This document shows positions 23,259-61,262 of a stretch of DNA of 64,000 nt, one piece after another (position 1 is the first letter of the stretch; each line of letters opens with the position of its first letter). The notes under the pieces are model-generated. The model was not told the DNA's origin, made no database searches, and saw only the letters and a list, made by a program, of their open reading frames with translations. Both the position numbers and the translations under genes were made by a program. The stretch is from Octopus vulgaris (Eukaryota): assembly GCA_951406725.2 (NCBI GenBank), contig OX597827.1, positions 81,344,001-81,408,000 on the forward strand. The letters are read 5' to 3'.

Positions 23259-23888
23259 GTAAGTATAATTTTACAAAAAACACCTCATTAACACCACCAC
23301 CACAGCCACTACATCCATTGCATGTCACCTTGGAGAACTATCTATTACTATAGACTTGAGTCGACCAAAGACTTGTGAGTAGATTTGGTTGAAAGAAACT
23401 GAGAGAAGCCCCCTTTTATATGTATGTATATATTAATATGTGTGCATCTTTGTGTCTTGATCTGGTGAAACAAATCGCATGAGCCCAGTAGTTAGCAGGA
23501 TTTATCTGGATTTACCTTCTCTTAGACGACCTGCTAAAGAGCTGAAGGGTTTCATCTGCCCTGGGCTTGTTATGATGTCTGTAAATTATCTCGATGCCAT
23601 TCCATGAAATGCTAATTAACCCATGACCATGATTTAGGTGGGTGCTACTACCTGGGGTCAAAGTAGATCTGGTATCAATAGAGGCTAAGAAATAGTCCCA
23701 CACTTCTCAAAACTGGAACTTCTGAAGAAGGCCCCCTCTAACCGATGCACTTTCAAGACAAGACAAAGGCCTCTAATACATTGGGTCACCATGAAAGCTG
23801 TCAGATATATTGTCTGGCATACATTTGAGGTGACATACTTTAATCAATGTTCTGTTAAACTCTTTCTCTCTTTCTTTCTCCATTCCAG

Positions 23889-23912
23889 TTACCAACAAGA
23901 ATTAAAAAATAA
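23889..23912 (+). CDS. Pcdh: Unit 1 terminal coding exon (LPTRIKK*)
   Basis: Long polypyrimidine acceptor ctctttctctctttctttctccattccag|TTA CCA ACA AGA ATT AAA AAA TAA; phase matches the donor. Confidence 0.65.
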   Translation, partial: LPTRIKK

Positions 23913-25592
23913 AACCACATTTCTGCCAAGGAAAAAAGATATTGTTACACAGACAGACTCTGGAATATTCTGTGAGGATCTTACCATCTTACCATAGTGG
24001 AATATTTGATGGACACATTCTTAACAACACACACACAAACACACACACTAGAATCACAAACACAGACACACATAAGACTGTAGTTGTACACACACACCTA
24101 CACACATTACATCAATGCACACACAGAAAGACACATTAACACATTCATACAAATTTTCACCCTATGTGTATACACACACAAACACACTTTATCCCCATGC
24201 TAATATCCAGTTTTTCCTATACATTCCTAGCTAGGCTTGAACCCATTCAACTCTATATCACACAATTTGTTGCATTCCTTTGCTGTCTTCTTTCTCAGGT
24301 TCCCATCTCCCTCTGTCTCTCTTGGATTTCCTCTCCCCCAGACTCCTTCCAGTTCCTCCAACGACATCCTTACTCAACTGCAACCATCTATTTACATCTC
24401 AGATCTACACAACCACACCCATGTCATTTCTACCAAACACCTAGCCCCTACCTCCCCGTTTCTGTACTACACCTGATATTCCTTTAGCCAGGTTTCCTTT
24501 CATCTAATCTCTCTCTTCTTGCTCAATACTCACCAAAATTACACAAGACAGTGGGGATTACTTGCTTCCTTTCTTACCAACTTCTACATCTGAATGTTCA
24601 ACATTCAATACCTTTGTCTTATTGCTAAGCAGTACTTTTTTTTTGTAATACAAGACTAACAAGCAATCTACACATCATTTGCAGTGAGATTACTTTTGTT
24701 GCCAGCAGTGATAAAAGAACCCTGACCTTCTTTTACTGTAGTTTTCTTCTGGCAACAATGCACTCAGGACACACTCGTCTACTATTGATTGTGCTTCATT
24801 CAATTGGTGGGTGTTGGGACACAAAAACCAATGCCCAGCTATCCCCCAAAACCAGTCTCTAACAATATCCCTACTTAAATGCTGATAAATATTCTGATAG
24901 TCTAATAATTCATCAAAGCATACGATATAGTTATCACAGGCTGTTAGCTGATGATGATGATGATGATATATATATATATATATAAACACACATATACATA
25001 TATATACTTACATATATGATAATATATATATTCATATATATCTGTATACAGATATAATATATATATAGATATATATGTATATACACACATACACATACAT
25101 ATGTAGATATACACACATATACACAGATATAATTATATATATAAATATATTTATATATAAAAGTATACATATATAATAAGTGTGTGTGTGTGTGTATAAA
25201 GTATAATCTGTCAGAAGGCAGCCAAGAGGTAAAAAGAGAGACAAACCATCAGGCAGGTGACTAAAGACTAGCCACATGCAACCATACATAAATATACATA
25301 TATAAATATTTACATACAATCATGTTTTTAAACACAACATATACGTATCCTCTATTGTATATCTATATACAACAACACACCAACTCGTTTCCCAACACAA
25401 CTGATAGTTTTACTACACATCACACATCGTTACAACACACCAGCATTACACAACACTCCATTGTTATACTATAAACCATACAACTACAAACTGTGTATAT
25501 TTACACAGCACACAGTCTATACACAGCTCTTATGACACACACACATCACTGCAGTATATGTGTAGAAGCAGTGTGTGTGTGTGTGTGTGTGT

Positions 25593-25659
25593 GCAGCAGA
25601 CTACAGCAGCAGAAACAACAGCAGCAGTAGTTACAGCCTGAGATCCACATCTCTACTAC

Positions 25660-25691
<32 letters not shown>

Positions 25692-25751
25692 GACACACCA
25701 CTAGACACTCCCTCACACACTGCCACACTGATTATGGATGAGACAATGGAG
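25593..25751 (+). other. Unit 2 leader exon (5' end approximate)
   Basis: Same block as unit 1; uATG at 25734; GAG|gtaagt. Confidence 0.7.
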
Positions 25752-27054
25752 GTAAGTCTACATCTATCTTCTTTCATTTCCCATCTTTCCTCTTTAATAT
25801 CAGGTGAAAATATATAAGAGACAAGAGAACACCAAAGGGACATTCAGAGAAACACCCTTATATCACTCACAAATATCAGCAAATATTTTACTCACAACAT
25901 ACAACTTCACTGGGCAAAATACTAACTATTATTATTATTATTACTATTATTAGATTATTTAATAATCCAGTGTCATTTCACAAATATTCTGGTTCTATAT
26001 TGATAGAGTTTATAATAATTGTTATTGTTTTAGTCTCCTATGTTGTTGGTTCGGTGAAATTAGATGCAAAGTTTGTCTCACTAAATCTCATTTTTCACAG
26101 GAAATCTCCATTTTGTCTTCACAACATTCCGTCTCTTCTCTTTAGCCAGATTATTTCATTTGTAGATTTCCTGCAGACACACTAACAATATATCATTATA
26201 TTCCCAGAAATATTTCTTACTTAATATTTCTCTATTCATTTTATCATATCACAATGTATAAATGATGTTCTAAAAGCATTTATAGAAACGATTTAACGAA
26301 GGAGGTCTTCATAATGAATCTATAATCACAGAGTAGCAGATATCGTTCTGATGTCAGACATGGTTGTTTGAGGGATTGTGTGAGCAATTTGTTGTGGAAA
26401 ATATATTTTAGTGTCAAAGTGAAGACAACAAGACATAGAAATACAAGTGGATCTTTTTTTTCTGTGGTGTGTGTGGATTAGTAATGTTCAAAAAATAATA
26501 ATAATATTAATAATGATAGCCATTCGTTAGACACATTGTTGTATATTGTGAATAGCAGCAGACATTTTGCTGTGATACAGAGTCATTTAGTGATTAATTT
26601 TCTTACGTACATATATATATATATATATATATCTGTGTTTGGTTCTGTCAGTATTTATTGTTTAAGATATCGTTCAGTGTATATATTAACATTTCAGCAT
26701 GACCTATACATTGTATATTGTTAATTTAGTTTATAATCACTGGTGTATATATTTTTAAACATGGCCATATAATGATGAGAAATCTTGCTTGTTGAAGCGT
26801 TTTCTTTCTGTTGTTCTTCAATTTCTTATATACACTCGTCATTATCTTTCACTAATTATATATTTGTTTGTGAATCACAAACTGTATGTTTAGAGTTATT
26901 CTATATTGACATTTGTAAATTTGTTGAATAGTCTTCAGTACAGAATGTATATTTACTGTGTATAGTATTCAGAAGTGAGTGTATACATTAATTCTCCAAA
27001 ACTATATCTGTGAGACTACTAACTATATAAATACACACACACCTACATATATAA

Positions 27055-27125
<71 letters not shown>

Positions 27126-27400
27126 TATTACATACATACACACAGAACATTCTCAATGAATGTGATTCATCTCTCATAGAAGTATAATGGTTCATAAGAA
27201 TTGTTATAAATGTGTATCTGCCAAAACTACACTTGTCTGTCTGTCTGTCTGTCTTTCTCTCTCTCTCTCTCTCACTCCTCTCTCTCTCTCTCTCTCTCTC
27301 TCACCCTTCTCTCTCTCTTTCTCACATGCACACACACACACACATTCTTATTTCTATAACACGGAATACAGTATTGTTGTTATATTTCAATATATTTTAG

Positions 27401-27530
27401 GGCCATTTCCAACGGAAGGGACCAAAACACTGAAGCCCAACTCTGTTCTCACCAAAATGGGATGACTTTAAGTTATTAACTTGAAGAAATCCTGTCTTTT
27501 AATTTGGATATTGAAGAATTCCTACTTTTG
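27401..27530 (+). other. Unit 2 second 5'UTR exon
   Basis: tattttag|GGCC ... TTTG|gtaagg, 130 nt. Confidence 0.65.
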
Positions 27531-28708
27531 GTAAGGTTTTCTGATTTCTTTAAAGGATTTGTTATCCAAACATTATTGTTCAATACAGTTTTAAATGTAT
27601 TTATTTTCTGAAACGAGATCTTAATTTTCCTTTGAAGTCTAGATTAATTAATTATAACTGTTGTTAATATATTATAAATAAATTTATGACACTTTTTTCA
27701 TCTGTAAGAGAGTAAAAGGGGCCTATTTAAGGGTTAACTTGCACTTATATATGAGTACCTTTACAAGGAGACACATAAATGAAAATATAGACACATGGAA
27801 TCAGTGAAAGACAGAGGGAGAGAGAGAAGAAGAAGGAGAAGCCTGTGGCTAGGATCCTTTAGGGATGAAGGTTTTGTTTTAATTAAAAAACTGGCTGTTG
27901 TTAATTTGAAGATGTGAATGATTAAGATCCAATAATTTTGATAACATTTATTGTCTGATAAAATTATCTGAGAATTTGAGTGGGTAATTAATAATGAAAT
28001 AGATAGATAGATAGAATAGATAGATAAATAGTGATATATATATATATATATATATATGGAGAGAGAGAGCGAGAGAGAGATAGGTAACCATCATCACCGA
28101 ATTTTGATGCTGAATGAAGAATGAAAGGATAGCTTGCAATGTCCCTACGGTTAAATATCCGCAGTTCTGTTACTTCATGGAAAAGCTAGTGAACAGAAAA
28201 AGATGACGATATCAACATTTTAAAGAAAATATCCAATGGAGACAAGAAATTTCTGACTATAATATTCCAAGTCTCCAACTCTGAAGCTAAAATAAGGGAG
28301 ATAATAAAACATTCTACGCACAAATAAATGCAGTTACCTCCCGTTACTATTTTCTGTATCTTAACGTTTAAGGAAATATTCAAAACTACTTCGAAAATGT
28401 CAGAAATTCTTGTCAAATACCCTATTTCCACTTTCTTTTAACAAACCAAGAATTTATATCCCTTCTCTTCATAGATGAGAATTTAGGGTAAAAACACTTA
28501 AATTCGGGAAACTTTGAACAAAACTTAATGTCCCATAAATATTAACACCTTTCTTTCAAGTCTCCCATAATAGTTTTGAAATTTTAAACAATTTCGACGG
28601 AAGATTCTTTCCAAAACCTCAACATTTCAGTGAAATTTTTCAATAAAAATATTCTATTTTCTTCTGTAATTTCAGATAAGCTCACGAGATATGATTTAAC
28701 ATTCTGTG

Positions 28709-31132
28709 ATGGAAGTAGGCTGTGTGTGGAATACATACTTACTTGCAAATGTCCTCAATCTATTACTACACAGTTGTGTCTGTGTAGATCTGAGCTATCA
28801 TGTAGAAGAAGAAAGCAGTCCCTTTACTTTTGTTGGGGATATTGCTGCTGACACACAGATGGAAGAAACGGACTCTCTTGTGGGAAATAACTTCATCACA
28901 TACAACCAAATGCAACAGCAATGGACAGAGAATTCACATTTATTCAATGTCACACAAGATGGTAAATTGTACACGGCTCAAACATTGGATGCTGAGAAAC
29001 TGTGTACATACGAATCAGAATGTGTTAGATACATCAAAGTTGCTGTACATAGAAGGAAGACATTTTTGAAAGTTATTAAAATTAAAGTAATTATAGAAGA
29101 CATTAATGATCACAGCCCTGAGTTTCCTCAAAAAGAAATAAATATGACATTTGATGAGCGTGATGGAGAAGGTGCTGAAGAATTAATTCCAGATGCCTTT
29201 GACAAAGATGTTGGAATGGAAAACTCTGAAATTACATATAAATTAAAGAAACAATTTAGCGATCCATTTATATTGTCTGTGAGGAAAACTATCACTGGAG
29301 GGGCAAAGATAGGAATTATTCTTGGAGACAAACTAGACAGAGAAATACAAGATAGTTACAATCTAGAAGTGATAGCTAATGATGGAGGACAGCCTTCGAA
29401 ACAAGGAATTTTACATGTTCATATAAAAATAATTGATGTGAATGATAACTCACCAGTTTTTTCACAACATATTTACAATATTTCCATCAAAAATACACAT
29501 CCTAACAACAACCCTATTTTGACATTGTCTGCAAAAGACCCAGATTCTGGCAATAATGGTAAAGTGTCTTATTTTTTTAGTTCAAAAACACCAGAACGCA
29601 CAAGACAGTATTTCAGACTGAACCAACAAACTGGGGAATTATTTGTAGAAAAACCATTAACATCACAAACAAAGAATATTCTCAAGATGTATGTGGAGGC
29701 CAAAGATGGAGGGAATCCTTCTTTAAATTCCTTTGCCATTGTACGGGTGAATATTCTCAATGAAAAGAACCATCCCCCCAAAATAGGGATCAATTTTGTG
29801 TCTGAATTGAAGAAGGACACTGCAGCTATTTATGAAGGAACTAAAGTGGGCAGTTATCTAGCTTATGTGAATGTGGTGGACAACGATTTTGGAGCAAATG
29901 GAGAAGTGAGTTGTAAATTAGAACATGATAAAGTTGTCCTCTCACATTTAGGATCAAAGGAATACAAGATTACTCTGAAGAAACCACTTGACAGAGAAAC
30001 ATTAGACCATTTTAACATGAGAATTGTGTGTGAAGACAATGGAAGCCCTGCTTTAAAGACGGAGAGAAAGATCTCAATCCAAGTAATGGATGTGAATGAT
30101 GTGCAACCGCAATTTACCAAAGATACATTCCACTTCCTCACCTATGAGAATGGTAAAGCAAACTTTCCTATAGGTTTTATCAATGCCACTGACCCAGACC
30201 TGGCAAGTGCTGGTCAACTGACGTTCTCACTGTTGAGTAAAGACAGAAATAACATACCGTTCCAGGTGAGTGATTATGGTTTTATTACCAGCAACATACC
30301 ATTGGACAGAGAAGAAGAAGACATGTATAAGTTTGAGGTTTTTGTCAAAGACAATGGTAAACCGTCGTTGAATAACACAGCGAATGTTGTTGTTGAGGTT
30401 TTAGACAGAAACGACAATAATCCGTATTTCATCTACCCTACAACTGACCCTTTCCATATCAATGTCCACTACCGCCCGCAAAGTACCAATGCCATCACTG
30501 TGATTAGAGCGTCTGACAGAGACAGTCATTTAAATGCGTTCCTCAAATATGGAATACTTGACGGTAACAATAAACGCTTGTTTACACTCAACTCTTTAAC
30601 TGGTCAAATGTCTTTCTCGCGTGCACCTCATCTCAACGATGCTGGCTCATACGAACTGGTGCTTGTGGTCAAGGATTCTGGAAGCCCAGTGTTGTCAGCC
30701 ACAACTACTGTGTCTTTGTCATTAAGGGTCACTAACAAGACATCAGCACCGATGCCGACTGTCCACTTAGAGAAGAACAGAACACTGGACGTACCATTAT
30801 TGATTATCCTTGTAGTAGCAGCTGTAATAGTAGCTGTGGTGATTGTAGTGTCGATCACACTGTGTATTGTGAAATGTAGCAGTGGTCAGTCTCGCTCTGC
30901 CAAGAACGCTAGGAAAGGTGTTAATAGGTCAGCTATATGTAACAGAATTGATCAACCTTTACCGTGTCAGAGCAGCAGTATTCCTGGTACCCCAGTGAGG
31001 TACTCTTCAGAGATGAATAATAGAAACATGCCATTTGTGGAATGTAAGGAAGATTTCTACCCGCAGTATGAGTCTCAGATTGATTGGTCAAACGTGGGTA
31101 CCCTGGAGAAGAGTCCACCCAATACAATATTG
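28709..31132 (+). CDS. Pcdh: Protocadherin unit 2, main coding exon (808 codons)
   Basis: Same architecture as unit 1; acceptor at 28676, donor gtaagt at 31133. Confidence 0.95.
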
Positions 31133-31214
31133 GTAAGTATAAGTTTACAAAAAAAGCCTCTCCCCATTGCTAACTCCACTGCATGTCACCTTTGGGAAAT
31201 ATCTTCTACTATAC

Positions 31215-31356
31215 TTGTTGGCATCAGGAAGGGCATCCATCTGTGGAAACTCTGCCAGATCAAGACTGGAGCCTTGTGCTGCCATCTGGTTGCCAGCCCT
31301 CTGTCAAAACTGTCCAACCCATGCTAGCATTGAAAATGGACGTTAAACGATGATGA
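31215..31356 (+). mobile_element. RTE-type 3' tail / SINE insertion specific to unit 2
   Basis: ttggcatcaggaagggcatcca...gttaaacgatgatgat; absent at the homologous site in unit 1 (about 23350). Confidence 0.7.
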
Positions 31357-31440
31357 TATAGACTTGAGTTGGTCAAAGCCTTATGAGAAGATTTGGTTGA
31401 TAGAAACTGAAAAATCACCTTCTATATATATGTATATATA

Positions 31441-32689
31441 TTAGGTTCACAACTAAGTTCCCGCTGTCTTTTTAAATTAAATCTTATTAAAAGATTTAAT
31501 ATAGAATAACAACTAATTAATCAATAATGTATTCATCCTTGTTGTTTAAAACTTCTTCCCAACTTTTAACAAGATTTCCAATACCTTGTTGGTAGAAATC
31601 ACCTGACTTCGATTCGAAAAATTGATCCAACCATGCTCTCAATTCTGCATCAATATTGAATGAAACTCCATGCATAGCATTTGAAAGAGATCGAAAGAGG
31701 TGGAAATCCGTTGGTGCCAAATAGGGAGAGTACAGCGGGTGTGGCAGCACTTCCCAGCCATGCGTTGGAATGGCTTCCTTGATCATATTGGTGATACGAG
31801 GGCGGGAGTTGCTGTGCAGCAGAAGAACTCCATGCTAAACATTAGGTTTTTTCCTCTTGAATAGCCATGTTGAACATAGAGTTCCACATTGACCGTTTGG
31901 TTCCATTCAAGCATTTCGTAATGGACAATCCCTTCCGAGTCCCACCATACGCACAACATCGTTTTACATGGATGCAGATCTTGTTTCATGTGCAGTGTCA
32001 CTCTACTGGGGCTAAGCCATTCCTTATGCTGCTTCATATTGATGTACAGACATCAATTTCCATCACCAGTAACGATTCGGTAAAGAAATCATTGCTTGTG
32101 TCCATGAGTTGAGCGGTGACATGCAAGCAACACAGCAGAGATTGTGGCTCATTGATTTCTGTTGTTGTCACTTAAAGCATGCGGAACCTATGCTCAATAA
32201 TTTTTTAACCTTTCCCATCGAGTGAAGATGCGTCTCTATAGCAGTGTAGGAGCATTCCATTTTCTCTGCCAGCTCCCTTGTTGTTTGATGAGAATTTTCA
32301 TGCCAAGGTTGGTTTAATCGGTCTTCATTGAACTCAACTGGATGGCCAGAACAAAGTGCATCTTTAAAGTCAAAATTTCCATTTTGAACTTGGCATACCA
32401 GTCATGAGTAGTGCTTTCAGCTATGGTACCCACTCCATACACAGCACAAATGTCACGAGCAGCTTTTGCTGCCTTAGAACCTTGATTAAAATCAAAAAGA
32501 AGGAGGAGTTGAAAACGCTTGTTTTTCTTAAATTGATGTTCTATTTTAAGGATATGAAAATAAACAAAAAATAACTAAAATTAACAAGAAAAAAAAACAA
32601 TAGATTCCAAAGTGATTCAAAAACAGAAATCTCGGAAAAAAATAGATTCCAAAATAAAAAAAAACGCGGTAACTGATTTGCCAACCCAG
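31441..32689 (-). mobile_element. Decayed mariner (DD34D-type) in unit 2 intron 3
   Basis: KTMLCVWWDSEGIVHYEML and WEVLPHPLYSPYLAPTDFHLFRSL; degenerate TIRs with TA flanks; empty site in unit 1 (about 23430). Confidence 0.88.
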
Positions 32690-33140: not shown

Positions 33141-33164
33141 TTACCAACAAGAATTAAAAAATAA
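33141..33164 (+). CDS. Pcdh: Unit 2 terminal coding exon (LPTRIKK*)
   Basis: ctccattccag|TTACCAACAAGAATTAAAAAATAA. Confidence 0.65.
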   Translation, partial: LPTRIKK

Positions 33165-36649: not shown

Positions 36650-36779
36650 GGCCATTTCCAACGGAAGGGACCAAAACACTGAAGCTCAGCTCTGTTCTCA
36701 CCAAAATGGGATGACTTTAAGTTATTAACTTGAAGAAATCCTGTCTTTTAATTTGGATATTGAAGAATTCCTACATTTG
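36650..36779 (+). other. Unit 3 second 5'UTR exon
   Basis: tattttag|GGCC ... TTTG|gtaagt, 130 nt. Confidence 0.65.
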
Positions 36780-37422: not shown

Positions 37423-38070
37423 GAGAGAGAGAGCGAGAGAGAGATAGGTAACCATCATCACCAAAATTTGATGCTGAATGAAAAATGAAAGGATAGCTTG
37501 CAATGTCCCTACAGTTAAATATCCGCAGTTCTGTTACTTCATGGAAAAGCTAGTGAACAGAAAAAGATGACGATATCAACATTTTAAAGAAAATATCCAA
37601 TGGAGACAAGAAATTTCTGACTATAATATTCCAAGTCTCCAAGTCAGAAGCTAAAATAAGGGAGATAATAAAACATTCTACGCACCATAAATGCAGTTAC
37701 CTCCCGTTACTATTTTGTCTTACTTTACTTTAAGGAAATATTCAAGACTACTTCGAAAATGTCAGAAATTCTTGTCAAATACCCTATTTCCACTTTCTTT
37801 TAACAAACCAAGAATTTATATCCCTTCTCTTCATAGATGAGAATTTAGGGTAAAAACACTTAAATTCGGGAAACTTTGAACAAAACTTAATGTCCCATAA
37901 ATATTAACACCTTTCTTTCAAGCCTCCCATAATAGTTTTGAAATTTTAAACAATTTCGACGGAAGATTCTTTCCAAAACCTCAAACTTTCAGTGAAATAT
38001 TTCAATAAAAATATTCTATTTTCTTCTGTAATTTCAGATAAACTCACGAGATATGATTTAACATTCTGTG

Positions 38071-40494
38071 ATGGAAGTAGGCTGTGTGTGGAATACATAC
38101 TTACTTGCAAATGTCCTCAATCTATTACTACACAGTTGTGTCTGTGTAGATCTGAGCTATCATGTAGAAGAAGAAAGCAGTCCCTTTACTTTTGTTGGGG
38201 ATATTGCTGCTGACACACAGATGGAAGAAACGGACTCTCTTGTGGGAAATAACTTCATCACATACAACCAAATGCAACAGCAATGGACAGAGAATTCACA
38301 TTTATTCAATGTCACACAAGATGGTAAATTGTACACGGCTCAAACATTGGATGCAGAGGAACTGTGTACATACGAATCAGATTGTGTTAGATACATCAAA
38401 GTTGCTGTACATAGAAGGAAGACATTTTTGAAAATTATTAAAATTAAAGTAATTATAGAAGATATTAATGATCACAGCCCTGAGTTTCCTCAGAGTGAGA
38501 TAAATCTGACATTTGGTGAGCGTGATGGGGAGGGTGCTGAAGGATTGATTCCAGAAGCCTTTGACAAAGATATTGGAATGGAAAATTCTGAAATTACATA
38601 TAAATTGAAGAAACAATTTAGTGATCCATTTATATTGTCTGTGAGGAAAACTATCACTGGAGGGGCAAAGATAGGAATTATTCTTGGAGACAAACTAGAC
38701 AGAGAAATACAAGATAGTTACAATCTAGAAGTGATAGCTAATGATGGAGGACAACCTTCAAAGGAAGGAATTTTACAAGTTCATATAAAAATAATTGATG
38801 TGAATGATAACTCACCAGTTTTTTCAAAACATATTTACAATATTTCCATCAAAAATACACATCCTAACAACAACCCCATTTTGACATTGTCTGCAAAAGA
38901 CCCAGATTCTGGCAATAATGGTAAAGTGTCTTATTTTTTGAGTTCAAAAACACCAGAACGCACAAGACAGTATTTCAGACTGAACCAACAAACTGGAGAA
39001 TTATTTGTAGAAAAACTATTAACATCACAAACAAAGAATATTCTCAAGATGTATGTGGAGGCAAAAGATGGTGGGAATCCATCCTTAAATTCCTTTGCCA
39101 TTGTACGGGTGAATATTCTCAATGAAAAGAACCATCCCCCCAAAATAGGGATCAATTTTGTGTCTGAATTGAAGAAGGACACTGCAGCTATTTACGAAGG
39201 AACTAAAGTGGGCAGTTTTCTAGCTTATGTGAATGTGGTGGACAATGATTTTGGAGCGAATGGAGAAGTGAGTTGTAAATTAGAACATGATATAGTTGTC
39301 CTCTCACATTTAGGATCAAAGGAATACAAGATTACTCTGAAGAAATCCCTTGACAGAGAAACATTAGACCACTTTAACATGAGAATTGTGTGTGAAGACA
39401 ATGGAAGCCCTGCTTTGAAGACGGAGAGAAAGATCTCAATCCAAGTAATGGATGTGAATGATGTGCAACCGCAATTTACCAAAGATACATTCCACTTCCT
39501 CACCTATGAGAATGGTAAAGCAAACTTTCCTATAGGTTTTATCAATGCCACTGACCCAGACCTGGCAAGTGCTGGTCAACTGACGTTCTCACTGTTGAGT
39601 AAAGACAGAAATAACATACCGTTCCAGGTGAGTGATTATGGTTTTATTACCAGCAACATACCATTGGACAGAGAAGAAGAAGACATGTATAAGTTTGAGG
39701 TTTTTGTCAAAGACAATGGTAAACCGTCGTTGAATAACACAGCGAATGTTGTTGTTGAGGTTTTAGACAGAAACGACAATAATCCGTATTTCATCTACCC
39801 TACAACTGACCCTTTCCATATCAATGTCCACTACCACCCGCAAAGTACCAATGCCATCACTGTGATTAGAGCGTCTGACAGAGACAGTCATTTAAATGCG
39901 TTCCTCAAATATGGAATACTTGACGGTAACAATAAACGCTTGTTTACACTCAACTCTTTAACTGGTCAAATGTCTTTCTCGCGTGCACCTCATCTCAACG
40001 ATGCTGGCTCATACGAACTGGTGCTTGTGGTCAAGGATTCTGGAAGCCCAGTGTTGTCAGCCACAACTACTGTGTCTTTGTCATTAAGGGTCACTAACAA
40101 AACATCAGCACCGATGCCGGCTGTCCACTTAGAGAAGAACAGAACACTGGACGTACCATTATTGATTATCCTTGTAGTAGCAGCTGTAATAGTAGCTGTG
40201 GTGATTGTAGTGTCGATCACACTGTGTATTGTGAAATGTAGCAGTGGTCAGTCTCGCTCTGCCAAGAGCACTAGGAAAGGTGTTAATAGGTCAGCTATAT
40301 GTAACAGAATTGATCAACCTTTACCGTGTCAGAGCAGCAGTATTCCTGGTACCCCAGTGAGGTACTCTTCAGAGATGAATAATAGAAACATGCCATTTTT
40401 GGAATGTAAGGAAGATTTCTACCCGCAGTATGAGTCTCAGATTGATTGGTCAAACGTGGGTACCCTGGAGAAGAGTCCACCCAATACAATATTG
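38071..40494 (+). CDS. Pcdh: Protocadherin unit 3, main coding exon (808 codons)
   Basis: Same architecture; acceptor at 38038, donor at 40495. Confidence 0.95.
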
Positions 40495-41849: not shown

Positions 41850-41873
41850 TTACCAACAAGAATTAAAAAATAA
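41850..41873 (+). CDS. Pcdh: Unit 3 terminal coding exon (LPTRIKK*)
   Basis: ctccattccag|TTACCAACAAGAATTAAAAAATAA. Confidence 0.65.
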   Translation, partial: LPTRIKK

Positions 41874-45171: not shown

Positions 45172-45301
45172 GGCCATTTCCAACGGAAGGGACCAAAACA
45201 CTGAAGCCCAACTCTGTTCTCACCAAAATGGGATGACTTTAAGTTATTAACTTGAAGAAATCCTGTCTTTTAATTTGGATATTGAAGAATTCCTACTTTT
45301 G
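45172..45301 (+). other. Unit 4 second 5'UTR exon
   Basis: tattttag|GGCC ... TTTG|gtaagg, 130 nt. Confidence 0.65.
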
Positions 45302-46850
45302 GTAAGGTTTTCTGATTTCTTTAAAGGATTTGTTATCCAAACATTATTGTTCAATACAGTTTTAAATGTATTTAGTTTTTTAATTTAATTAATTTTAACA
45401 GTTGTTAATATATTATCACATATTTCCTATATTCTGCTTATAAACAATGTGATATTCAGACATATCTCACATTATTCTATGTAATGTAGGCATCCACTTT
45501 CTCTCTGGGTCTCTGTTCAAAATAAATTTATGACATTTTTTTCATCTGTAAGAGAGTAAAAGGGTCCTATTTAAGGGTTAACTTGCAATTATATATGAGT
45601 ACCTTTAAAAGGAGACACATAAATGAAAAGACAGACATATTGAATCAGTGAAAGACAGAGGGAGAGAGAGAGAGAGAGAAGAAGAAAGAGAAGCCTGTTG
45701 CTAGGATCATTTAGGGATGAAGGTTTTGTTTCAATTAAAAATCAGTGGCTGATGTTAAGTTGAAGATGTTGATGTTTAGGATCCAGTAATTTTGATTATG
45801 TTGATTGTCTGATAAAATCATCTGAGATTTCAGTAGGTAATTAATAATGAGATAGATAGATCGATAGATAGATCGATAGATAGATAGAGACACAAACGGA
45901 TATAATATACATACATACATACATATATATATATACAGAGAGAGAGAGAGAGAAAGAGGAGAAAGAGACTGAAATAGAGATAGAGGGATAGATATAATCT
46001 TTATCTTCACAGAATTCTGATGTTGAATGAAAAGTGAAATAAAACAGGTATTAATGCATCAAAAGCAAAAGAACAATCGTTTTGTCAATTCCAGGAATGA
46101 CTGCTTAGTAAAAACGAGATGAAGATATCTCCAGTTTTAAGATAATATGCAACTGTGATGAGAATTTTCAGACCATTCCATAATCTGTGCCTATAAAATA
46201 TCCTCACGTAGTCGCCCCATTGCATTCCTAACACAAGGGAGACAATTGAATATTGTCGGCTCCATAAATGCAGTTACCTCCCGTACCTATTTTGGTTAGA
46301 TTCAAAATTGGAGGGAATTTTGGAGACAACTTCGAAGATGTCATAAATTCTCATCAAATACTCTATTTCCACTTTCTTCATGGATATATATCTTTGGATT
46401 TATATCCAAATTTTCAAGCATGTAACATTTTATTTGTTATAAGTAAAATTAACTATCTGTAAGATCCACAAAATGTTCCCTTGAGAGAAAAGAATTTAGG
46501 GAACAAAACCCTGAAATTATTGAAACTTTGAACTACAAAGAAAGATATCATAAAAGCTAACTCCTTTCTGTTCTGCTGACCATAATAGTTTAGAAATTTT
46601 CTTCAATTTCATCAAAAGATTCTTTCTAAAACTTCTAATTTACAGTGAAATGCTATGACATACACTAAGACATGTCATAAATGCTCACTCCTTTCTTTCG
46701 ACTTTACTATAATTCACATGAAATTTTAAACAATTTCAACAAATGATTCTTTCCAAAACCTCAAACTTTCAGTGAGATATTTCAATAAAAATATTCTATT
46801 TTCTTCTGTAATTTCAGATAAACTCACGAGATATGATTTAACATTCTGTG

Positions 46851-49274
46851 ATGGAAGTAGGCTGTGTGTGGAATACATACTTACTTGCAAATGTCCTCAA
46901 TCTATTACTACACAGTTGTGTCTGTGTAGATCTGAGCTATCATGTAGAAGAAGAAAGCAGTCCCTTTACTTTTGTTGGGGATATTGCTGCTGACACACAG
47001 ATGGAAGAAACGGACTCTCTTGTGGGAAATAACTTCATCACATACAACCAAATACAGAGACAAAGAACAGGAAATTCACATTTGTTTAATGTCACACAAG
47101 ATGGTAAATTGTACACGGCTCAAACATTGGATGCAGAGAAACTGTGTACATACGAATCAGATTGTGTTAGATACATCAAAGTTGCTGTACGTAGAAGGAA
47201 GACATTTTTGAAAGTTATTAAAATTAAAGTAATTATAGAAGACATTAACGATCACAGCCCTGAGTTTCCTCAAGAAGAAATAAATCTGACATTTGGTGAG
47301 CGTGATGGGGAGGGTGCTGAAGGATTAATTCCAGATGCCATTGACAAAGATATTGGAATGGAAAACTCTGAAGTTACATACAAATTGAAGAAACAATTTA
47401 GTGATCCATTTATATTGTCTGTGAAGAAAACCATCACAGGAAGAGCAAAGATCGGAATTATTCTTGGAGACAAACTAGACAGAGAAATTAAAGATAGTTA
47501 CAATCTAGAAGTGATAGCTAATGATGGAGGGCAACCTTCAAAACAAGGAATTCTACATGTTCATATAAAAATAATTGATGTGAATGATAACTCACCAGTT
47601 TTTTCAAAACATATTTACAATATTTCCATCAAAAATACACATCCTAACAACAACCCTATTTTGACATTGTCTGCAAAAGACCCAGATTCTGGCAATAATG
47701 GTAAAGTGTCTTATTTTTTTAGTCCGGAAACACCAGAACGTACAAGAAGACATTTCAGATTGAACCAACAAACTGGGGAATTATTTGTAGAAAAACCATT
47801 AACATCAAATACAAAGAATATTCTCAAGATGTATGTGGAGGCGAAAGATGGAGGGAATCCATCCTTAAATTCCTTTGCCATTGTACGGGTGAATGTTCTC
47901 AATGAAAAGAACCATGCTCCTGAAATTGATATAAATTTTGTGTCTGAATTGAAGAAGGACACTGCAGCTATTTATGAAGGAACTAAAGTGGGCAGTTATC
48001 TAGCTTATGTGAATGTGGTGGACAACGATGTTGGAGCAAATGGAGAAGTGAGTTGTAAATTAGAACATGATAAAGTTGTCCTCTCACATTTAGGATCAAA
48101 GGAATACAAGATTACTCTGAAGAAATCCCTTGACAGAGAAACATTAGACCATTTTAACATGAGAATTGTGTGTGAAGACAATGGAAGCCCTGCTTTAAAG
48201 ACGGAGAGAAAGATCTCAATCCAAGTAATGGATGTGAACGATGTGCAACCGCAATTTACCAAAGATACATTCCACTTCCTCACCTATGAGAATGGTAAAG
48301 CAAACTTTCCTATAGGTTTTATCAATGCCACTGACCCAGACCTGGCAAGTGCTGGTCAACTGACGTTCTCACTGTTGAGTAAAGACAGAAATAACATACC
48401 GTTCCAGGTGAGTGATTATGGTTTTATTACCAGCAACATACCATTGGACAGAGAAGAAGAAGACATGTATAAGTTTGAGGTTTTTGTCAAAGACAATGGT
48501 AAACCGTCGTTGAATAACACAGCGAATGTTGTTGTTGAGGTTTTAGACAGAAACGACAATAATCCGTATTTCATCTACCCTACAACTGACCCTTTCCATA
48601 TCAATGTCCACTACCGCCCGCAAAGTACCAATGCCATCACTGTGATTAGAGCGTCTGACAGAGACAGTCATTTAAATGCGTTCCTCAAATATGGAATACT
48701 TGACGGTAACAATAAACGCTTGTTTACACTCAACTCTTTAACTGGTCAAATGTCTTTCTCGCGTGCACCTCATCTCAACGATGCTGGCTCATACGAACTG
48801 GTGCTTGTGGTCAAGGATTCTGGTAGCCCAGTGTTGTCAGCCACAACTACTGTGTCTTTGTCATTAAGAGTCACTAACAAGACATCAGCACCAATGCCAA
48901 CTGTCCACTTAGAGAAGAACAGAACACTGGACGTACCGTTATTGATTATCCTTGTAGTAGCAGCTGTAATAGTAGCTGTGGTGATTGTAGTGTCGATCAC
49001 ACTGTGTATTGTGAAATGTAGCAGTGGTCAGTCTCGCTCTGCCAAGAGCACTAGGAAAGGTGTTAATAGGTCAGCTATATGTAACAGAATTGATCAACCT
49101 TTACCGTGTCAGAGCAGCAGTATTCCTGGTACCCCAGTGAGGTACTCTTCTGAGATGAATAATAGAAACATGCCATTTGTGGAATGTAAGGAAGATTTCT
49201 ACCCGCAGTATGAGTCTCAGATTGATTGGTCAAACGTGGGTACCCTGGAGAAGAGTCCACCCAATACAATATTG
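46851..49274 (+). CDS. Pcdh: Protocadherin unit 4, main coding exon (808 codons)
   Basis: Same architecture; acceptor at 46818, donor at 49275. Confidence 0.95.
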
Positions 49275-51410: not shown

Positions 51411-51434
51411 TTACCAACAAGAATTAAAAAATAA
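51411..51434 (+). CDS. Pcdh: Unit 4 terminal coding exon (LPTRIKK*)
   Basis: ctccattccag|TTACCAACAAGAATTAAAAAATAA. Confidence 0.65.
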   Translation, partial: LPTRIKK

Positions 51435-52196: not shown

Positions 52197-52242
<46 letters not shown>

Positions 52243-52473: not shown

Positions 52474-52528
<55 letters not shown>

Positions 52529-52904: not shown

Positions 52905-52970
52905 GCAGCAGACTACAGCAGCAGAAACAACAGCAGCAGTAGTTACAGCCTGAGATCCACATCTCTACTA

Positions 52971-53005
<35 letters not shown>

Positions 53006-53065
53006 GACACACCACTAGACACTCCCTCACACACTGCCACACTGATTATGGATGAGACAATGGAG
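52905..53065 (+). other. Unit 5 leader exon (5' end approximate)
   Basis: uATG at 53048; GAG|gtaagt. Confidence 0.7.
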
Positions 53066-53243
53066 GTAAGTCTACATCTATCTTCTTTCATTTCCCATCT
53101 TTCCTCTTTAATATCATGTGAAAATATATAAGAGACAAGAGAAAACCAAAGAGACATTCAGAGAAACACCCTTATATCACTCACAAATATCAGCAAATGT
53201 TTTACTCACAACATACAACTTCACTGGGCAAAATACTAACTAC

Positions 53244-53278
<35 letters not shown>

Positions 53279-53931
53279 GATTATTTAACAATCCAGTGTC
53301 ATTTCACAAATATTCTGGTTCTATATTGATAGAGTTTATAATAATTGTTATTGTTTTAGTCTCCTATGTTGTTGGTTAGGTGAAATTAGATGCAAAGTTT
53401 GTCTCACTAAATCTCATTTCTCACAGGAAATCTCCATTTTGTCTTCACATCATTCCGTCTCTTCTCTTTAGCCAGATTATTTCATTTGTAGATTTCCTGC
53501 AGACACTCTAACAATATATCATTATATTCCCAGAAATATTTCTTACTTAATATTTCTCTATTCATTTTATCATATCACAATGTATAAATGATGTTCTAAA
53601 AGCATTTATAGAAACGATTTAACGAAGGAGGTCTTCATAATGAATCTATAATCACAGAGTAGCAGATATCGTTCTGATGTCAGACATGGTTGTTTGAGGG
53701 ATTGTGTGAGCAATTTGTTGTGGAAAATATATTTTAGTGTCAAAGTGAAGACAACAAGACATAGAAATACAAGTGGATCTTTTTTTCTGTGGTGTGTGTG
53801 GATTAGTAATGTTCAAAATAATAATAATATTAATAATGATAGCCATTCGTTAGACACATTGTTGTATATTGTGAATAGCAGCAGACATGTTTGCTGTGAT
53901 ACAGAGTCATTTGGTGATTAATTTTCTTGTG

Positions 53932-53967
<36 letters not shown>

Positions 53968-54523
53968 GTGTTTGGTTCTGTCAGTATTTATTAAGATATT
54001 GTACAGCGTATATATTAACATTTCAGCATGAGCAATATGTTGTATATTGTTAATTTTGTGTATAATCACTGGTGTATATATTTTTAAACATGGCTATATA
54101 ATGATGAGAAATCTTGCTTGTTGAAGCCTTTTTTTCTCGTTTATCTTCGATGATCAAATTTCTTATATACAGTCATGTTCATATTTCTCTAATTATAGAT
54201 TTGCATAACGCAAACTGTGTATTTAGAGTTTATTGTGTATTGAACAGTGTAAAGATGTAGAATATTCCGTAGGATAGGGAGAATATTTACAGTTTAATGT
54301 ATAATAAAAGTGTATATATTTTCTACATATTTCTATCAGTGAGACTTCTATGTATCTCCTGCAGTCTATATGACATACAAAACTGTCTATAACTGCACAT
54401 TTACAGTATATAATGTTTAGCAGTGAGTGTATATGCTAAACCCTCATAAACTATGTCAGGGAGACGTCTAAAATGACATAAATCAGAAAGAAGCATAGTC
54501 TAAAGAATAGAGCAGTAATTATT

Positions 54524-54729
54524 ACAAGAAAAGTTTTATAAGTTGGACATGGAGTTACCCAAGGTTTCGCATCTACAAAGCCTCGACTTCTGAGCATTTT
54601 CTCACATCTGCAATGCAGAGATTTTAGATTTTGTATTTGTATAGAGTCTGACGAGATGTCCACAAGGCTTTGCTTTGTGGATGCAAAACATTGGGTAACT
54701 CTGTGTCCAAGATATAAAATTTTTGTTGT
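54524..54729. mobile_element. Fold-back Penelope-derived element with a mutated hammerhead motif (54641-54704)
   Basis: 58-bp imperfect inverted arms (54524-54581 / 54672-54729). Plus strand atagagt CTGACGA g..stem..c AAAA cattggGTA actctgt; the other arm retains gcGAAAccttggGTAactc. Confidence 0.6.
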
Positions 54730-54809
54730 TATATATATATATATATATTTACACACATGCATAAACACACAAACATATATATCCTATTATGCATACATAC
54801 ATACATACA

Positions 54810-54864
<55 letters not shown>

Positions 54865-55105
54865 CACTCTGCATGAAAGTCATTCATCTCTCATATAAAC
54901 ATCATGGTACATAAGAATTGTTATAAATCTATATCTGTCAAAACTATATCTGTCTGTTTGAATATCCATCACTCTGACCATCCGTCTCTCTGTCTGTTTG
55001 TCTGTCTGTGTGTCTATCTGTCTGTCTCTTCTCCTCTCTGTCTGTCTCTGTTTTATTTCTTTGATATGGAATATAATATTGTTGTTATAATTCAATATAC
55101 TTTAG

Positions 55106-55274
55106 GGTCGTTTCCAGTGGAAGGGACCAAAACACTGAGGCCCAGTTCTGTTGCTATTGGATACAGGGGACAACTGACAGATTCTTCTGTTCTCACTAAA
55201 ATGGGATGACTTTAAGTTATTAACTTGAAGAAATCCAATCTTTTAATTTGGATGTTGAAGCATTCCTACTTTCG
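55106..55274 (+). other. Unit 5 second 5'UTR exon (169 nt, diverged)
   Basis: tactttag|GGTC ... TTCG|gtaagg; 39 nt longer than in units 1-4. Confidence 0.65.
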
Positions 55275-55489
55275 GTAAGGTTTTCTGATTTCTGTAAAGG
55301 ATTTTATTGAGAAATCATCCAGAATTATTTTACCTTGATTGTTCAATACAGTTTTAAATGAATCTATTTCCAGGAAAGAAATCTTAATTTTCATTTGACA
55401 TCTAGATTAATTAATTTCAAATGTGGTTAGAATATTATTCAATGTGATATTCAGACATATGTCACATAATATCATGCTAACATATTTTG

Positions 55490-56057
55490 ACATCTCATAA
55501 ATAATGTGTTTTATTTATACTTCTCTTATTTTTCAAAATTAAGATAAACGAAGTTCTTTTTAATCTAAACTATTCTCTCTTTCATTTTCTACAATGCTCT
55601 TCCTTCTGTCTGGGAGACTTGCAAGGCCCTTCTTCCAAAATTCACTTGTCTGCGACAAAAAATACTCTTCCAGTTCTATTCTAAACTCGTCTAGAGAATT
55701 CATATTTTTCCCATCCAAGTGATTTTGAAGACTGTGGAATAAATGATAATCAAATGGGGCAATGTCCAGTGAATATGGTGGATGGGGCATCGTTTCCCAT
55801 TCAAACTGTTCCAGCCTTTGGAATGTCATCCTCACTGTCTGTGGCCAAGCATTATCCTGATGGAAGATCACTTTTCATCTCGAAACCAGAGACGGTCATT
55901 TTTCTTCTAACACTCACTTAAGCCATTCAAGCTGCCAACAGTGGATCTCCTTTGTTATCATTTGGTTTGGGTTTAAAAGTTCAAAGTGGACTAAACCTTT
56001 CATATCCCATCAAACAGATAACAACACCTTATGTGGGTGAAGACCTTCTTTAGCCTG
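55490..56057 (-). mobile_element. Mariner transposase 3' fragment in unit 5 intron 2
   Basis: IFHQDNAWPQT...WETMPHPPYSLDIAPFDYHLFHSLQNHL; boundaries approximate. Confidence 0.85.
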
Positions 56058-56336
56058 TTAATGCTTAACTTATATTTGTATAATGAGTACCTCTACACAG
56101 AGACACACAGAATAAGGGAGTGGGGGAGAAGAAGAAAAAGACGAAGAATTGGAAGAAGAAGAAGAAGAGGAAGCAACAGCAGCAGCAGCCTGTTGAGATG
56201 ATCACTTTGGGATGAAAGTTTTCTTTTAATGAAAAAACAGTGTCTGATGTTAAGTTGAAGTTAACTTTGATAATATCGTCTGATAAAATTATTTGAGGTT
56301 TGAGTAAGTAATTACTAATTAGAAAGATATATATAT

Positions 56337-56412
<76 letters not shown>

Positions 56413-57086
56413 GTAGCATCACTATCATCCTTGAATTTTGATGTTGAATAAAAGAATTGACGTTAATGCTTCTATAGTTAAATAAGAATAATTCTGTCAA
56501 TTCATGGAAAGACTAGTTAATAGAAAAGAGATTGAGATATCTATATTTTGAAGAAAATATGCAATTGTGACAAGAAATTTCAGACCATTCCATGTTTTAA
56601 AAATTTCTCCCCAGTGCATTCCTTACATAAGGGAGACAATCAAACATTGCACCACAATATATGCAGTTACCTCCCGTATTTATTTTCAGTATCTCCACGT
56701 TTAAGGAGATATTTAAGACTACTTCGAAGAAGTCTGAAATTCTTATCAAATACACTATTGCCATGCTCTTGGTGGATATAAATCACTGGATTTATATCCA
56801 ACTTTACAAGCATGTACCATGTTCTTTCTAATAAGTAAAACTGCATCATCTGTAATAAAGGGTTCTCTTGATAGAAAACAATTTAGTGAATAATGCCACG
56901 ACATACACTAAGACATATCATAAATGTTCACTCCTTTCTTTCAGCTTTACCATAATTGACATGAAATTTTTAACAATTTCAACAAAAAATTCTTTTTAAA
57001 ATCTCAAACATTCAGTGAAATTTTTCAATAAAAATTTTCTTCTGTAATTTCAGATAAACTCACGAGATATGATTTAACATTCTGTG

Positions 57087-59510
57087 ATGGAAGTAGGCTG
57101 TGTGTGGAATACATACTTACTTGCAAATGTCCTCAATCTATTACTACACAGTTGTGTCTGTGTAGATCTGAGCTATCATGTAGAAGAAGAAAGCAGTCCC
57201 TTTACTTTTGTTGGGGATATTGCTGCTGACACACAGATGGAAGAAACGGACTCTCTTGTGGGAAATAACTTCATCACATACAACCAAATGCAACAGCAAT
57301 GGACAGAGAATTCACATTTATTCAATGTCACACAAGATGGTAAATTGTACACGGCTCAAACATTGGATGCAGAGAAACTGTGTACATACGAATCAGATTG
57401 TGTTAGATACATCAAAGTTGCTGTACGTAGAAGGAAGACATTTTTGAAAATTATTAAAATTCAGGTTATTATAGAAGACATTAACGATCACAGCCCTGAG
57501 TTTGCTCAGACACAACTGAATATTACATTTGATGAACGTGATGGAGAAGGAGCCGAAAGATTAATTCCAGATGCCTTTGACAAAGATGTTGGAATGGAAA
57601 ACTCTGAAATTACATATAAATTGAAGAAACAATTTAGTGATCCATTTATATTGTCTGTGAGAAAAACCATCACAGGAAGAGCAAAGATAGGAATTATTCT
57701 TGGAGAAAAACTAGACAGAGAAATACAAGATAGTTACAATCTAGAAGTGATAGCTAATGATGGAGGGCAACCTTCAAAAGAAGGAATTTTACAAGTTCAT
57801 ATAAAAATAATTGATGTTAACGATAACTCACCAGTTTTTTCAAAACATATTTACAATATTTCCATCAAAAATACACATCCTAACAACAACCCTATTTTGA
57901 CATTGTCTGCAAAAGACCCAGATTCTGGCAACAATGGTAAAGTGTCTTATTTCTTTAGTCCGGAAACACCAGAACGTACAAGAAGACATTTCAGACTGAA
58001 CCAACAAACTGGGGAATTATTTGTAGAAAAACCATTAACATCACAAACAAAGAATATTCTCAAGATGTATGTGGAGGCGAAAGATGGAGGGAATCCTTCT
58101 TTAAATTCCTTTGCCATTGTACGGGTGAATATTCTCAATGAAAAGAACCATCCTCCCAAAATAGGGATCAATTTTGTGTCTGAATTGAAGAAGGACACTG
58201 CAGCGATTTACGAAGGAACTAAAGTGGGCAGTTTTCTTGCTTATGTGAATGTGGTGGACAACGATGTTGGAGCAAATGGAGAAGTGAGTTGTAAATTAGA
58301 ACATGATAAAGTTGTCCTCTCACATTTAGGATCAAAGGAATACAAGATTACTCTGAAGAAACCACTTGACAGAGAAAAATTAGACCATTTTAACATGAGA
58401 ATTGTGTGTGAAGACAATGGAAGCCCTGCTTTAAAGACGGAGAGAAAGATCTCAATCCAAGTAATGGATGTGAATGATGTGCAACCGCAATTTACCAAAG
58501 ATACATTCCACTTCCTCACCTATGAGAATGGTAAAGCAAACTTTCCTATAGGTTTTATCAATGCCACTGACCCAGACCTGGCAAGTGCTGGTCAACTGAC
58601 GTTCTCACTGTTGAGTAAAGACAGAAATAACATACCGTTCCAGGTGAGTGATTATGGTTTTATTACCAGCAACATACCATTGGACAGAGAAGAAGAAGAC
58701 ATGTATAAGTTTGAGGTTTTTGTCAAAGACAATGGTAAACCGTCGTTGAATAACACAGCGAATGTTGTTGTTGAGGTTTTAGACAGAAACGACAATAATC
58801 CGTATTTCATCTACCCTACAACTGACCCTTTCCATATCAATGTCCACTACCGCCCGCAAAGTACCAATGCCATCACTGTGATTAGAGCGTCTGACAGAGA
58901 CAGTCATTTAAATGCGTTCCTCAAATATGGAATACTTGACGGTAACAATAAACGCTTGTTTACACTCAACTCTTTAACTGGTCAAATGTCTTTCTCGCGT
59001 GCACCTCATCTCAACGATGCTGGCTCATACGAACTGGTGCTTGTGGTCAAGGATTCTGGTAGCCCAGTGTTGTCAGCCACAACTACTGTGTCTTTGTCAT
59101 TAAGGGTCACTAACAAGACATCAGCACCGATGCCGACTGTCCACTTAGAGAAGAACAGAACACTGGACGTACCATTATTGATTATCCTTGTAGTAGCAGC
59201 TGTAATAGTAGCTGTGGTGATTGTAGTGTCGATCACACTGTGTATTGTGAAATGTAGCAGTGGTCAGTCTCGCTCTGCCAAGAGCACTAGGAAAGGTGTT
59301 AATAGGTCAGCTATATGTAACAGAATTGATCAACCTTTACCGTGTCAGAGCAGCAGTATTCCTGGTACCCCAGTGAGGTACTCTTCAGAGATGAATAATA
59401 GAAACATGCCATTTGTGGAATGTAAGGAAGATTTCTACCCGCAGTATGAGTCTCAGATAGATTGGTCAAATGTGGGTACCCTGGAGAAGAGTCCACCCAA
59501 TACAATATTG
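57087..59510 (+). CDS. Pcdh: Protocadherin unit 5, main coding exon (808 codons)
   Basis: Same architecture; acceptor at 57054, donor gtaagt at 59511. Confidence 0.95.
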
Positions 59511-59651
59511 GTAAGTTACTTATAATCTATCTGCCAATCTGCCTGTCTCCATCTATCAATCTATCTAGTTACCTATCTGTCTGCATTCTTCCTGTTTATC
59601 TATCTATCTTTCTGTCTCTTGTCTGTCTTCCTAGCCATCTATCTGTCTGTT

Positions 59652-59685
<34 letters not shown>

Positions 59686-61238
59686 CTCATCATTCTGTTT
59701 GTCTTTCTCTCTACCTGTACACCTGTCTGTCTCTCTCTCTATCTTCCTACCTCTCTGTCCATTATTCCACCCATCCACCCTCCTGACTCTCTGTTTATGG
59801 GTCTTTTTGCCTCTCCTTCTTGTTATTGTATATATCCAATCAGATTTATTCTTTTCGCATAATCCTCCCCCTCCTGATCCTCATTGTTGACACTAGTGGC
59901 AGTGGCAGTGCTGGTAATGTCATCACTTTTTTCATCCTCATCATCCTCATCATCTCAGCTGTCCTCATCATTGGAATTACGTTAACTCCCACGATCCTCA
60001 GCCACAGAGTTTCAGCAAGACTCTACACCTGTCATTCAAAATGCTGAAAATAGCTCACAAATTCTTGCAAACCACACTTTAAAGTGAAGGACATACCTGA
60101 CCGTACATTCCTTGACATATATGAATATGGAATCATCAATATGTGACAGCTTTTAATTACTGAGCTGCTCAGTCAGGCTGGCCTGGGGTTAAATACCAAC
60201 AACAGCAACATCATCAATACACTCAGTCTCTGTTCTCCTCTACAAAGGATTGTACTCCTTTTTACTTCCTCTTACAGACCCCATTAAATATAGGGATCTC
60301 TTAGAGACCCGATGAAAGATAGGGATCAAATCCAGAACCTTGAGACAGGCTATAATATGTAAGATTTCTTTAATTAAATAATTAACGACACATAAAGAGG
60401 TAATAACTGTGTGTCTTGTAGACTGGTGCCAGCAGGTTAGGACCAATTTAGTTGATGTTTAGCCTCGACTTGTTCTGGTTGCTGATGATGGAAAGGGAAT
60501 ATAAGGAGGAATGGAATTGCTGTCGGTTACTAACAGTGGGGAAGAAGGATTGTGTGAAGTGTTTAAGTGGAGTCAGGAGTGAGAATGAGAGAATTATAAA
60601 GTAGGCCATGATGAGAAATGAAGTGTTTCTCTGGTTGATATGCTGAGAGGATTTCTTGTGAGAAACAGTTCAGAGGAGCAGAGGATGTTGCCATGGAGAT
60701 GGAATGTGTAAGGAGAATACATAGCACATCTATGAACCAGTGGCTCTTGTGTGAGTCTTTAAAAACCAGTTCAATGTGGTTTTATTGGTAATTCTGTGAA
60801 GGGAAGGCCATTGTACCTTCAGCCCCCAATGCCACCCATCCAGATATCTGGAAAGTACAACTGTGAATGGATATTTGATGAAGTTATATACAGGACGGCC
60901 CAAAAGTAGGTTTACAGTTATCATTCAGGCACTTTAAATTTCTTTTAAAACATTTCATTACATTTCAGTTTTTATCTTACAATTAACTCAATTAGCTTAG
61001 AATAATGGGTTCATATTTTTTCTTCATAATTAAGGTCTAAACTGTTAACACATGAATGCAAAAGAGATTGTTGAATAACTGTAAACCTACCTTTGGGCCA
61101 CTCTATATGTGGGGCCTATAATGAGGGGCCAGTACAAATTATGTGAGGTCAGACATAGTGTCTGTCATAATGTCAGTTGAACATTTGATCAAACAAGTTT
61201 TATTCAATGTTGTCAAATTGTTTCTTTTCCCATTCCAG

Positions 61239-61262
61239 TTACCAACAAGAATTAAGAAATAG
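61239..61262 (+). CDS. Pcdh: Unit 5 terminal coding exon (LPTRIKK*), diverged copy
   Basis: tttcttttcccattccag|TTA CCA ACA AGA ATT AAG AAA TAG: only synonymous changes (AAA>AAG, TAA>TAG), although the intron is largely unalignable. Confidence 0.7.
   Translation, partial: LPTRIKK

Follow-up and report, generated by a model that had tools for sequence, protein, structure and literature searches.

The window analysed here is a 64-kb stretch of Octopus vulgaris C14 (G000, 81,344,001-81,408,000), taken from a genome of 2.8 Gb. Its translation revealed five long ORFs on the plus strand that encode near-identical protocadherins. The 200 kb downstream of the window were also read, and the complete array was found to consist of 12 main exons alternating with 12 short terminal exons (hereafter tails), of which the window holds units 1-5. 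The main exons lie on the plus strand at 20802..23258 (unit 1), 28676..31132 (unit 2), 38038..40494 (unit 3), 46818..49274 (unit 4) and 57054..59510 (unit 5). In unit 1 the start codon is at 20835, and the 808 codons up to the phase-0 donor encode a signal peptide, six cadherin repeats, a transmembrane segment (TM) and a short cytoplasmic part. The repeats were recognised by Pfam as one Cadherin_2 and five Cadherin stretches (proteins P0001 and P0129) and the hydrophobic TM was read from the sequence. Octopod protocadherins match best among named proteins: those of Octopus vulgaris (100% over the C-terminal 249 aa) and Argonauta (85%), and also those of O. sinensis and O. bimaculoides. The C-terminal 120 aa gave 138 matches, all on C14 and spread over several subarrays, and the units studied here, each a full multi-exon gene copy, lie head to tail as one subarray of this one-chromosome cluster. 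Each unit is best read as four exons, namely an inferred leader, a second 5′ UTR exon, the main exon and the tail.

All five main exons end in SPPNTIL, with the last codon directly abutting a phase-0 GTAAGT donor at 23258, 31132, 40494, 49274 and 59510, as the first-pass annotation had described. Its proposal of a 7-codon last exon in every unit also held. LPTRIKK and a stop codon follow a pyrimidine tract and CAG at 23889..23912, 33141..33164, 41850..41873, 51411..51434 and 61239..61262 (units 1-5, all plus strand), and the introns of 630, 2008, 1355, 2136 and 1728 nt match the proposed spacing of 0.6-2.1 kb. In the diverged unit 5 the coding change in the tail is indeed synonymous only (AAA to AAG, with the stop changed from TAA to TAG), and its 3′ UTR is 71% identical to those of units 1-4 over 100 nt. 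The description of the splice sites as identical applies to the six bases of the donor and to the few at the very end of the acceptor, but not to the wider acceptor region, which is 96-100% identical among units 1-4 and only 61% in unit 5. Across the 12 units, exactly one tail lies between each main exon and the leader of the next unit, at a distance of 15.4 kb in unit 11 and 0.6-3.5 kb in the other units.

The first-pass annotation had placed a single exon upstream of each main exon; instead, two non-coding exons precede it in each window unit. The first, the leader, is deduced from donor conservation and spans 17900..18058 in unit 1, with an approximate 5′ end and a GTAAGT donor after 18058. 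Its copies end at conserved donors at 25751, 35004, 43687, 53065 and 63855 on the same strand. The second 5′ UTR exon occupies 19759..19888 (+) in unit 1, with plus-strand copies at 27401-27530, 36650-36779, 45172-45301 and 55106-55274, and this exon type is found joined to the main acceptor in RNA-like contigs, as seen from the loose ends at 20801 in runs X1 and X5. Between the leaders and the start codon lies an in-frame stop. Units 1-10 share identical sequence over the final 60 nt of the leader exon, and the leader intron is 90-99% identical over its first 300 nt. This contrasts with the tail side: in the leader region (17868-19377 and copies) the promoters seem to be homogenised, while the 3′ UTRs diverge. 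If 18041-18058 is joined to 19759-19791, an ATG-initiated frame starting with MDETME at the leader end would stop 10 codons into exon 2 and could represent a short upstream ORF. An upstream ORF running from the leader directly into the main acceptor was dropped, as the second UTR exon intervenes.

Transcript-like evidence for the tail comes from four runs (X1, X5, X9 and X16) mapped to unit 1 only at 90% likeness. These are assembled contigs from which rare forms are dropped, and their RNA or DNA nature is our guess, as none of the 24 runs listed is recorded as RNA. The joint 23258>23889 (GT..AG, 630 nt skipped) appeared in X1, X5 and X9, the three RNA-like runs, which come from three studies, and not in the one DNA-like run, X16, so the local acceptor proposed for unit 1 appears to be used. 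The contigs showing the joint have a short side of 21-27 letters, which is below the 31-letter bridging rule. Across the intron bins 23515-23824 the depth is 0-2 in the RNA-like runs versus 179-504 in X16, which covers the tail intron as DNA would. RNA-like cover resumes over the tail and downstream of it, reaching in X1 the end of the mapped stretch with 3′ UTR-type cover to at least 24900 and no further joints listed. The only donor loose end among the 24 of 174 loose ends listed (X9, two contigs) corresponds to the unit-12 tail, and within the same set all donor joints and loose ends of RNA-like contigs lead to array tails. Since the contigs cannot phase near-identical units, they do not tell apart which main exon joins which tail. 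The X5 joint contig, with four letters other than unit 1, was rejected as phasing evidence because the count alone would suit unit 3, 8 or 9 and the runs come from animals other than G000. Similarly, an exon-2 loose end with its best match in unit 8 together with a main-exon piece carrying two letters other than unit 1 was not accepted as cross-unit splicing, as paralogues and alleles are mixed in the contigs. The depth peak in bin 23360-23514 (141,463 in X16) comes from a genome-wide repeat and is uninformative on intron retention. An AATAAA overlaps the tail stop codon (23908-23913 in the window, and copies) in units 1-4 and 6-9, and RNA-like cover extends past it.

The tail sequence itself is conserved beyond its surroundings. 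Eleven of the 12 tails read LPTRIKK and one reads LPTRIKR. Their codons show seven synonymous states versus one conservative K>R change with 4.7 of 21 sites being synonymous (binomial P 1.7e-4, an approximate value because the 12 tails share ancestry). The flanking intron and UTR drop to about 50-77% identity between unit groups; for the 3′ UTRs the values are 44-77%, with some pairs at 87-100%. AG followed by LPTR codons occurs six times on the plus strand of the window and never on the minus strand (mean of 0.04 in 50 shuffles), the sixth match being the tail of an upstream gene at 2582. Genome-wide, the acceptor plus LPTR pattern was uninformative (176 matches versus 143 for a reversed control, the listed matches ending before C14). 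The tail is already used by public gene models such as P0001. Proteins ending in LPTRIK[KR] make up 11 of the 15 members of the P0001 cluster, and all seven Argonauta relatives end in LPTR[IL]KK. These data support the 7-codon exon as a real, spliced and selected last exon. Reading it as an ER-retrieval signal was rejected under the KKXX rule, as its lysines are at -1 and -2.

A similar organisation was found in the neighbouring genes. The match at 2582 is the terminal exon (2582..2608, +, LPTRFTKR and stop) of a diverged protocadherin gene upstream of the array; the main exon of that gene is 48 kb further upstream and outside the window. A phase-0 donor with a single tail of its own, 6-61 kb away, was present in each of the four flanking single genes examined, the tails being LPTRTLKR at 6 kb, LPTRFTKR at 48 kb, LPKWLPKR at 9 kb and LPTRLPKR at 61 kb. 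Over the C-terminal 120 aa, neighbours with the same intron phase reach only about 40-66% identity. Because these diverged genes share both features, intron phase 0 and the LP(T/K)(R/W)-type tail are older than the array. Altogether, each of the 16 examined genes with an intact donor had one tail per main exon. In a second, unrelated subarray at 79.9-80.2 Mb, 25 copies of a tail of its own, different from the one here, are interspersed with the main exons. Gene-specific alternative ends also exist in the subfamily: the longer tail of P0008 and P0009 consists of two exons directly downstream of a different main exon (G000:C14:81852183-81860451), and among the 120 listed proteins it is restricted to one orthologous pair, the O. 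bimaculoides and Argonauta models.

Sequence divergence between units is very uneven. The main exons of the eight intact units differ at 69 amino-acid sites, mostly in EC1-EC4 with a hotspot at the EC2 start (residues 140-168), and are nearly invariant from EC5 to the cytoplasm. In the eight intact units of equal length, a set that omits the frameshifted units 7 and 9 and also units 11 and 12, pS was 0.12, 0.18, 0.10 and 0.11 for EC1-EC4 and 0.00, 0.03, 0.02 and 0.03 for EC5, EC6, TM and cytoplasm. Over the final 300 nt of the main exon, all 12 units are 97-100% identical, with at most six differences in the 150 nt next to the donor; conversion and polymorphism make paralogue SNPs a blurred guide to the units. 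This invariance reaches as far as the sixth intron base. Most intron starts show 40-70% identity, and shuffled sequence gives 52%. Units 11 and 12 are chimeric. Their N-terminal stretches are diverged, with 34-60% identity to unit 5 in 50-residue windows, and their flanks are unrelated, but over the last 341 codons they differ from units 1, 5, 6 and 10 at 1-5 of about 143 fourfold sites. The open frame of unit 11 has no start. Identical 3′ halves within unrelated flanks are the pattern of homogenisation by gene conversion, and from it we infer that conversion is ongoing in the 3′ half of the main exon. Single-base frameshifts are present in two of the 12 main exons, with one insertion and one deletion in unit 7 (L002-L003) and two insertions in unit 9 (L005); these units are either pseudogenes or affected by assembly errors.

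We therefore consider it very probable that the window holds the first five of 12 head-to-tail gene copies, each with its own spliced tail, that their splice sites match due to duplication and gene conversion, and that splicing takes place mainly within copies. The earlier description of the units as self-contained genes agrees with this, given the alternation of 12 main exons with 12 tails and the local joint in RNA-like runs. Equal splice phase is expected because whole-gene duplication passes on intron position and phase, and the same phase is shared with diverged neighbours. The first suggestion that the equal sites point to cross-unit splicing or a distal constant exon is not supported. 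Most likely they are an ordinary by-product of whole-gene duplication and not an exon-mixing system. In the proposed scenario, copies would inherit the intron position, phase and tail by duplication, gene conversion would keep the main exon almost uniform in its 3′ half as far as the donor, and purifying selection would preserve the seven residues of the tail while drift goes on in introns and 3′ UTRs. The outcome would be varied ectodomains on a shared cytoplasmic end, produced by concerted evolution rather than by constant-exon splicing. The tail putatively acts as a short basic end binding a membrane or a partner. Among the points against the within-copy reading is the subfamily with the YPQYESQ motif. 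Of the 17 such proteins among 120 listed homologues, 11 end in a tail of this kind and six have other annotated ends at the same donor.

The claim that cross-unit joins would stay in frame holds for the tails. Any main-to-tail join fits, and yields LPTRIKK with 11 of the 12 tails or else LPTRIKR, so that a tail swap otherwise affects the 3′ UTR alone. A main exon joined to a later leader or main acceptor reaches a stop after 7-23 codons: 10-23 codons for the seven later UTR-exon acceptors found and 7 codons for all ten later main acceptors. Cross-unit splicing could thus not diversify the protein, because tail swaps give the same C-terminus and other joins stop early, and the interchangeability of sites is true on paper and trivial. 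This bears directly on the idea that transcription reads through the packed units, so that a main exon skips its own tail and splices to a later one, swapping the 3′ UTR and leaving the protein the same. Read-through is plausible given the tight packing and the weak poly(A) signals of units 1-3. In units 1-11 no more than 1.2-2.6 kb separates a tail from the next leader donor, and units 1-3 lack AATAAA or ATTAAA between the stop-codon region and the next leader. The donors are all phase 0 and all 12 tails fit, the 3′ UTRs differ between unit groups to the extent given above, and the public model P0128, a prediction, is a join of this type, leading from the unit 10 donor to an acceptor inside the unit 11 leader and then to a stop. 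Another public model, P0121, fuses two units in what appears to be a frame-saving prediction. However, reaching the next tail requires skipping two leader exons and a 2.4-kb main exon with strong sites, and joins to the nearer acceptors stop upstream of further introns. Such stops would make the transcripts targets of nonsense-mediated decay. Read-through splicing would yield no new protein, and phased molecules showing it were absent from the contigs, which cannot phase units. We regard it as unlikely. Less likely again is an elaborated form, in which read-through splicing would pair any ectodomain variant with one of six or more diverged 3′ UTRs behind an invariant LPTRIKK end. If this is true, mRNA localisation, editing or microRNA control would no longer be tied to recognition identity, and the system would be a non-coding counterpart of the vertebrate variable-constant system.

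A distal constant exon beyond the window, common to the units in the style of vertebrate alpha and gamma clusters and with the local tail as default, seems very improbable. The phase would permit it, the last introns of related genes can be long (48 and 61 kb), and the longer P0008/P0009 tails are conserved between two species. Those tails map behind a different main exon (C14:81.83-81.86 Mb), though, and in a single orthologous pair. The RNA-like contigs on unit 1, with donor joints and listed loose ends reaching array tails only, contained no such exon, and none is used by the public models of the array. According to the available passages of PMC9068888, the mechanism is absent from cephalopods. 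The lack of CM1 and CM2 motifs noted earlier for the tail, once taken to leave room for a distal exon, would be the norm and does not argue for a missing exon, as the part of PMC6339937 available to us reports no evidence for CM1-3 motifs in O. vulgaris protocadherins. It is hardly credible at all that assembly or haplotype artefacts account for part of the near-identical units and so inflate the copy count. The first 100 UTR bases are 100% identical in units 1-4, and units 7 and 9 carry their single-base frameshifts, but against this stand 69 differing amino-acid sites with pS up to 0.18 in EC2, intron starts that differ between units, and at least seven similar copies in Argonauta.

Full gene duplication with within-copy splicing is an ordinary explanation of the layout, and in kind it is already published. 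The passages available from PMC9068888 attribute cephalopod protocadherin diversity to full gene duplication with gene conversion and not to variable-constant splicing, and describe a self-contained multi-exon layout. Excerpts of PMC6339937 likewise describe multi-exonic genes, and those of PMC9795677 confirm tandem duplication. Our array resembles the coleoid subarrays of these three sources in its same-strand head-to-tail multi-exonic full duplicates, one-chromosome cluster, gene conversion and six cadherin repeats. There is no difference in kind, and the exon detail (two 5′ UTR exons, a 7-codon tail and a conversion edge at the donor) goes beyond the published passages available. In the consulted part of PMC9699675, splicing rates in O. 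vulgaris are not unusual and 3′ UTR length is notable; FLAM-seq and a set of full-length isoforms are mentioned there as well. The literature search returned nothing on the tail exon, on the two peptide motifs or on cross-unit splicing of cephalopod protocadherins; an account of the exon structure may exist in Albertin 2015, in Wang and Ragsdale 2017, in Noonan 2004 or in the supplements of Albertin 2015/2022.

The array shares several features with the vertebrate protocadherin alpha and gamma clusters. Both have one large exon for the ectodomain, TM and proximal cytoplasmic part, and both place varied N-terminal repeats on a shared C-terminal end. Both also show low divergence in EC5/EC6 and high divergence in EC2, the excerpt of PMC4978886 giving the lowest synonymous divergence of vertebrate clusters in EC5/EC6 and the highest in EC2. 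Unlike these clusters, the octopus array has no shared constant 3′ exons but one tail per gene, its tail has 7 residues versus a constant domain of 125, and its first exons are non-coding. The three basic residues of the octopus tail may recall the lysine-rich, lipid-binding C-terminal end of gamma-Pcdh (PMC10849722, in the portion available), a likeness by analogy only. The octopus expansion is independent of the vertebrate clusters and convergent. Self-contained tandem genes with gene conversion and without constant exons are also known from the vertebrate protocadherin beta cluster, where the genes are single-exon. The octopus genes differ from these by their 5′ UTR introns and spliced tail.

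These results give exon-level, transcript-like support to the published view of octopus protocadherins as full gene duplicates. They also suggest how a constant cytoplasmic end could be kept without constant exons, by conversion that reaches the donor, together with selection on the seven residues of a tail maintained across Octopus and Argonauta. The conserved tail and the YPQYESQ motif are candidate sites for intracellular partners of octopus protocadherins. Regulated cross-unit splicing, if true, would overturn the stated contrast with vertebrates, and in the 12-unit array it could alter untranslated regions only.

Two further elements were noticed at the locus. A truncated thirteenth unit (L011, G000:C14:81511701-81512006), with a leader donor upstream, retains only the end of EC6, the TM and the cytoplasmic part. 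It lacks the splice donor and its C-terminus differs from that of the array; its junction is present in the RNA-like run X9, and the same junction ends the O. sinensis model P0134. Positions 8550-10796 of the window hold transposon-like ORF remnants, which from the look of the sequence we take to be a reverse-transcriptase-like frame at 9828-10727 (+) and hAT-like frames at 9697-8550 (-).
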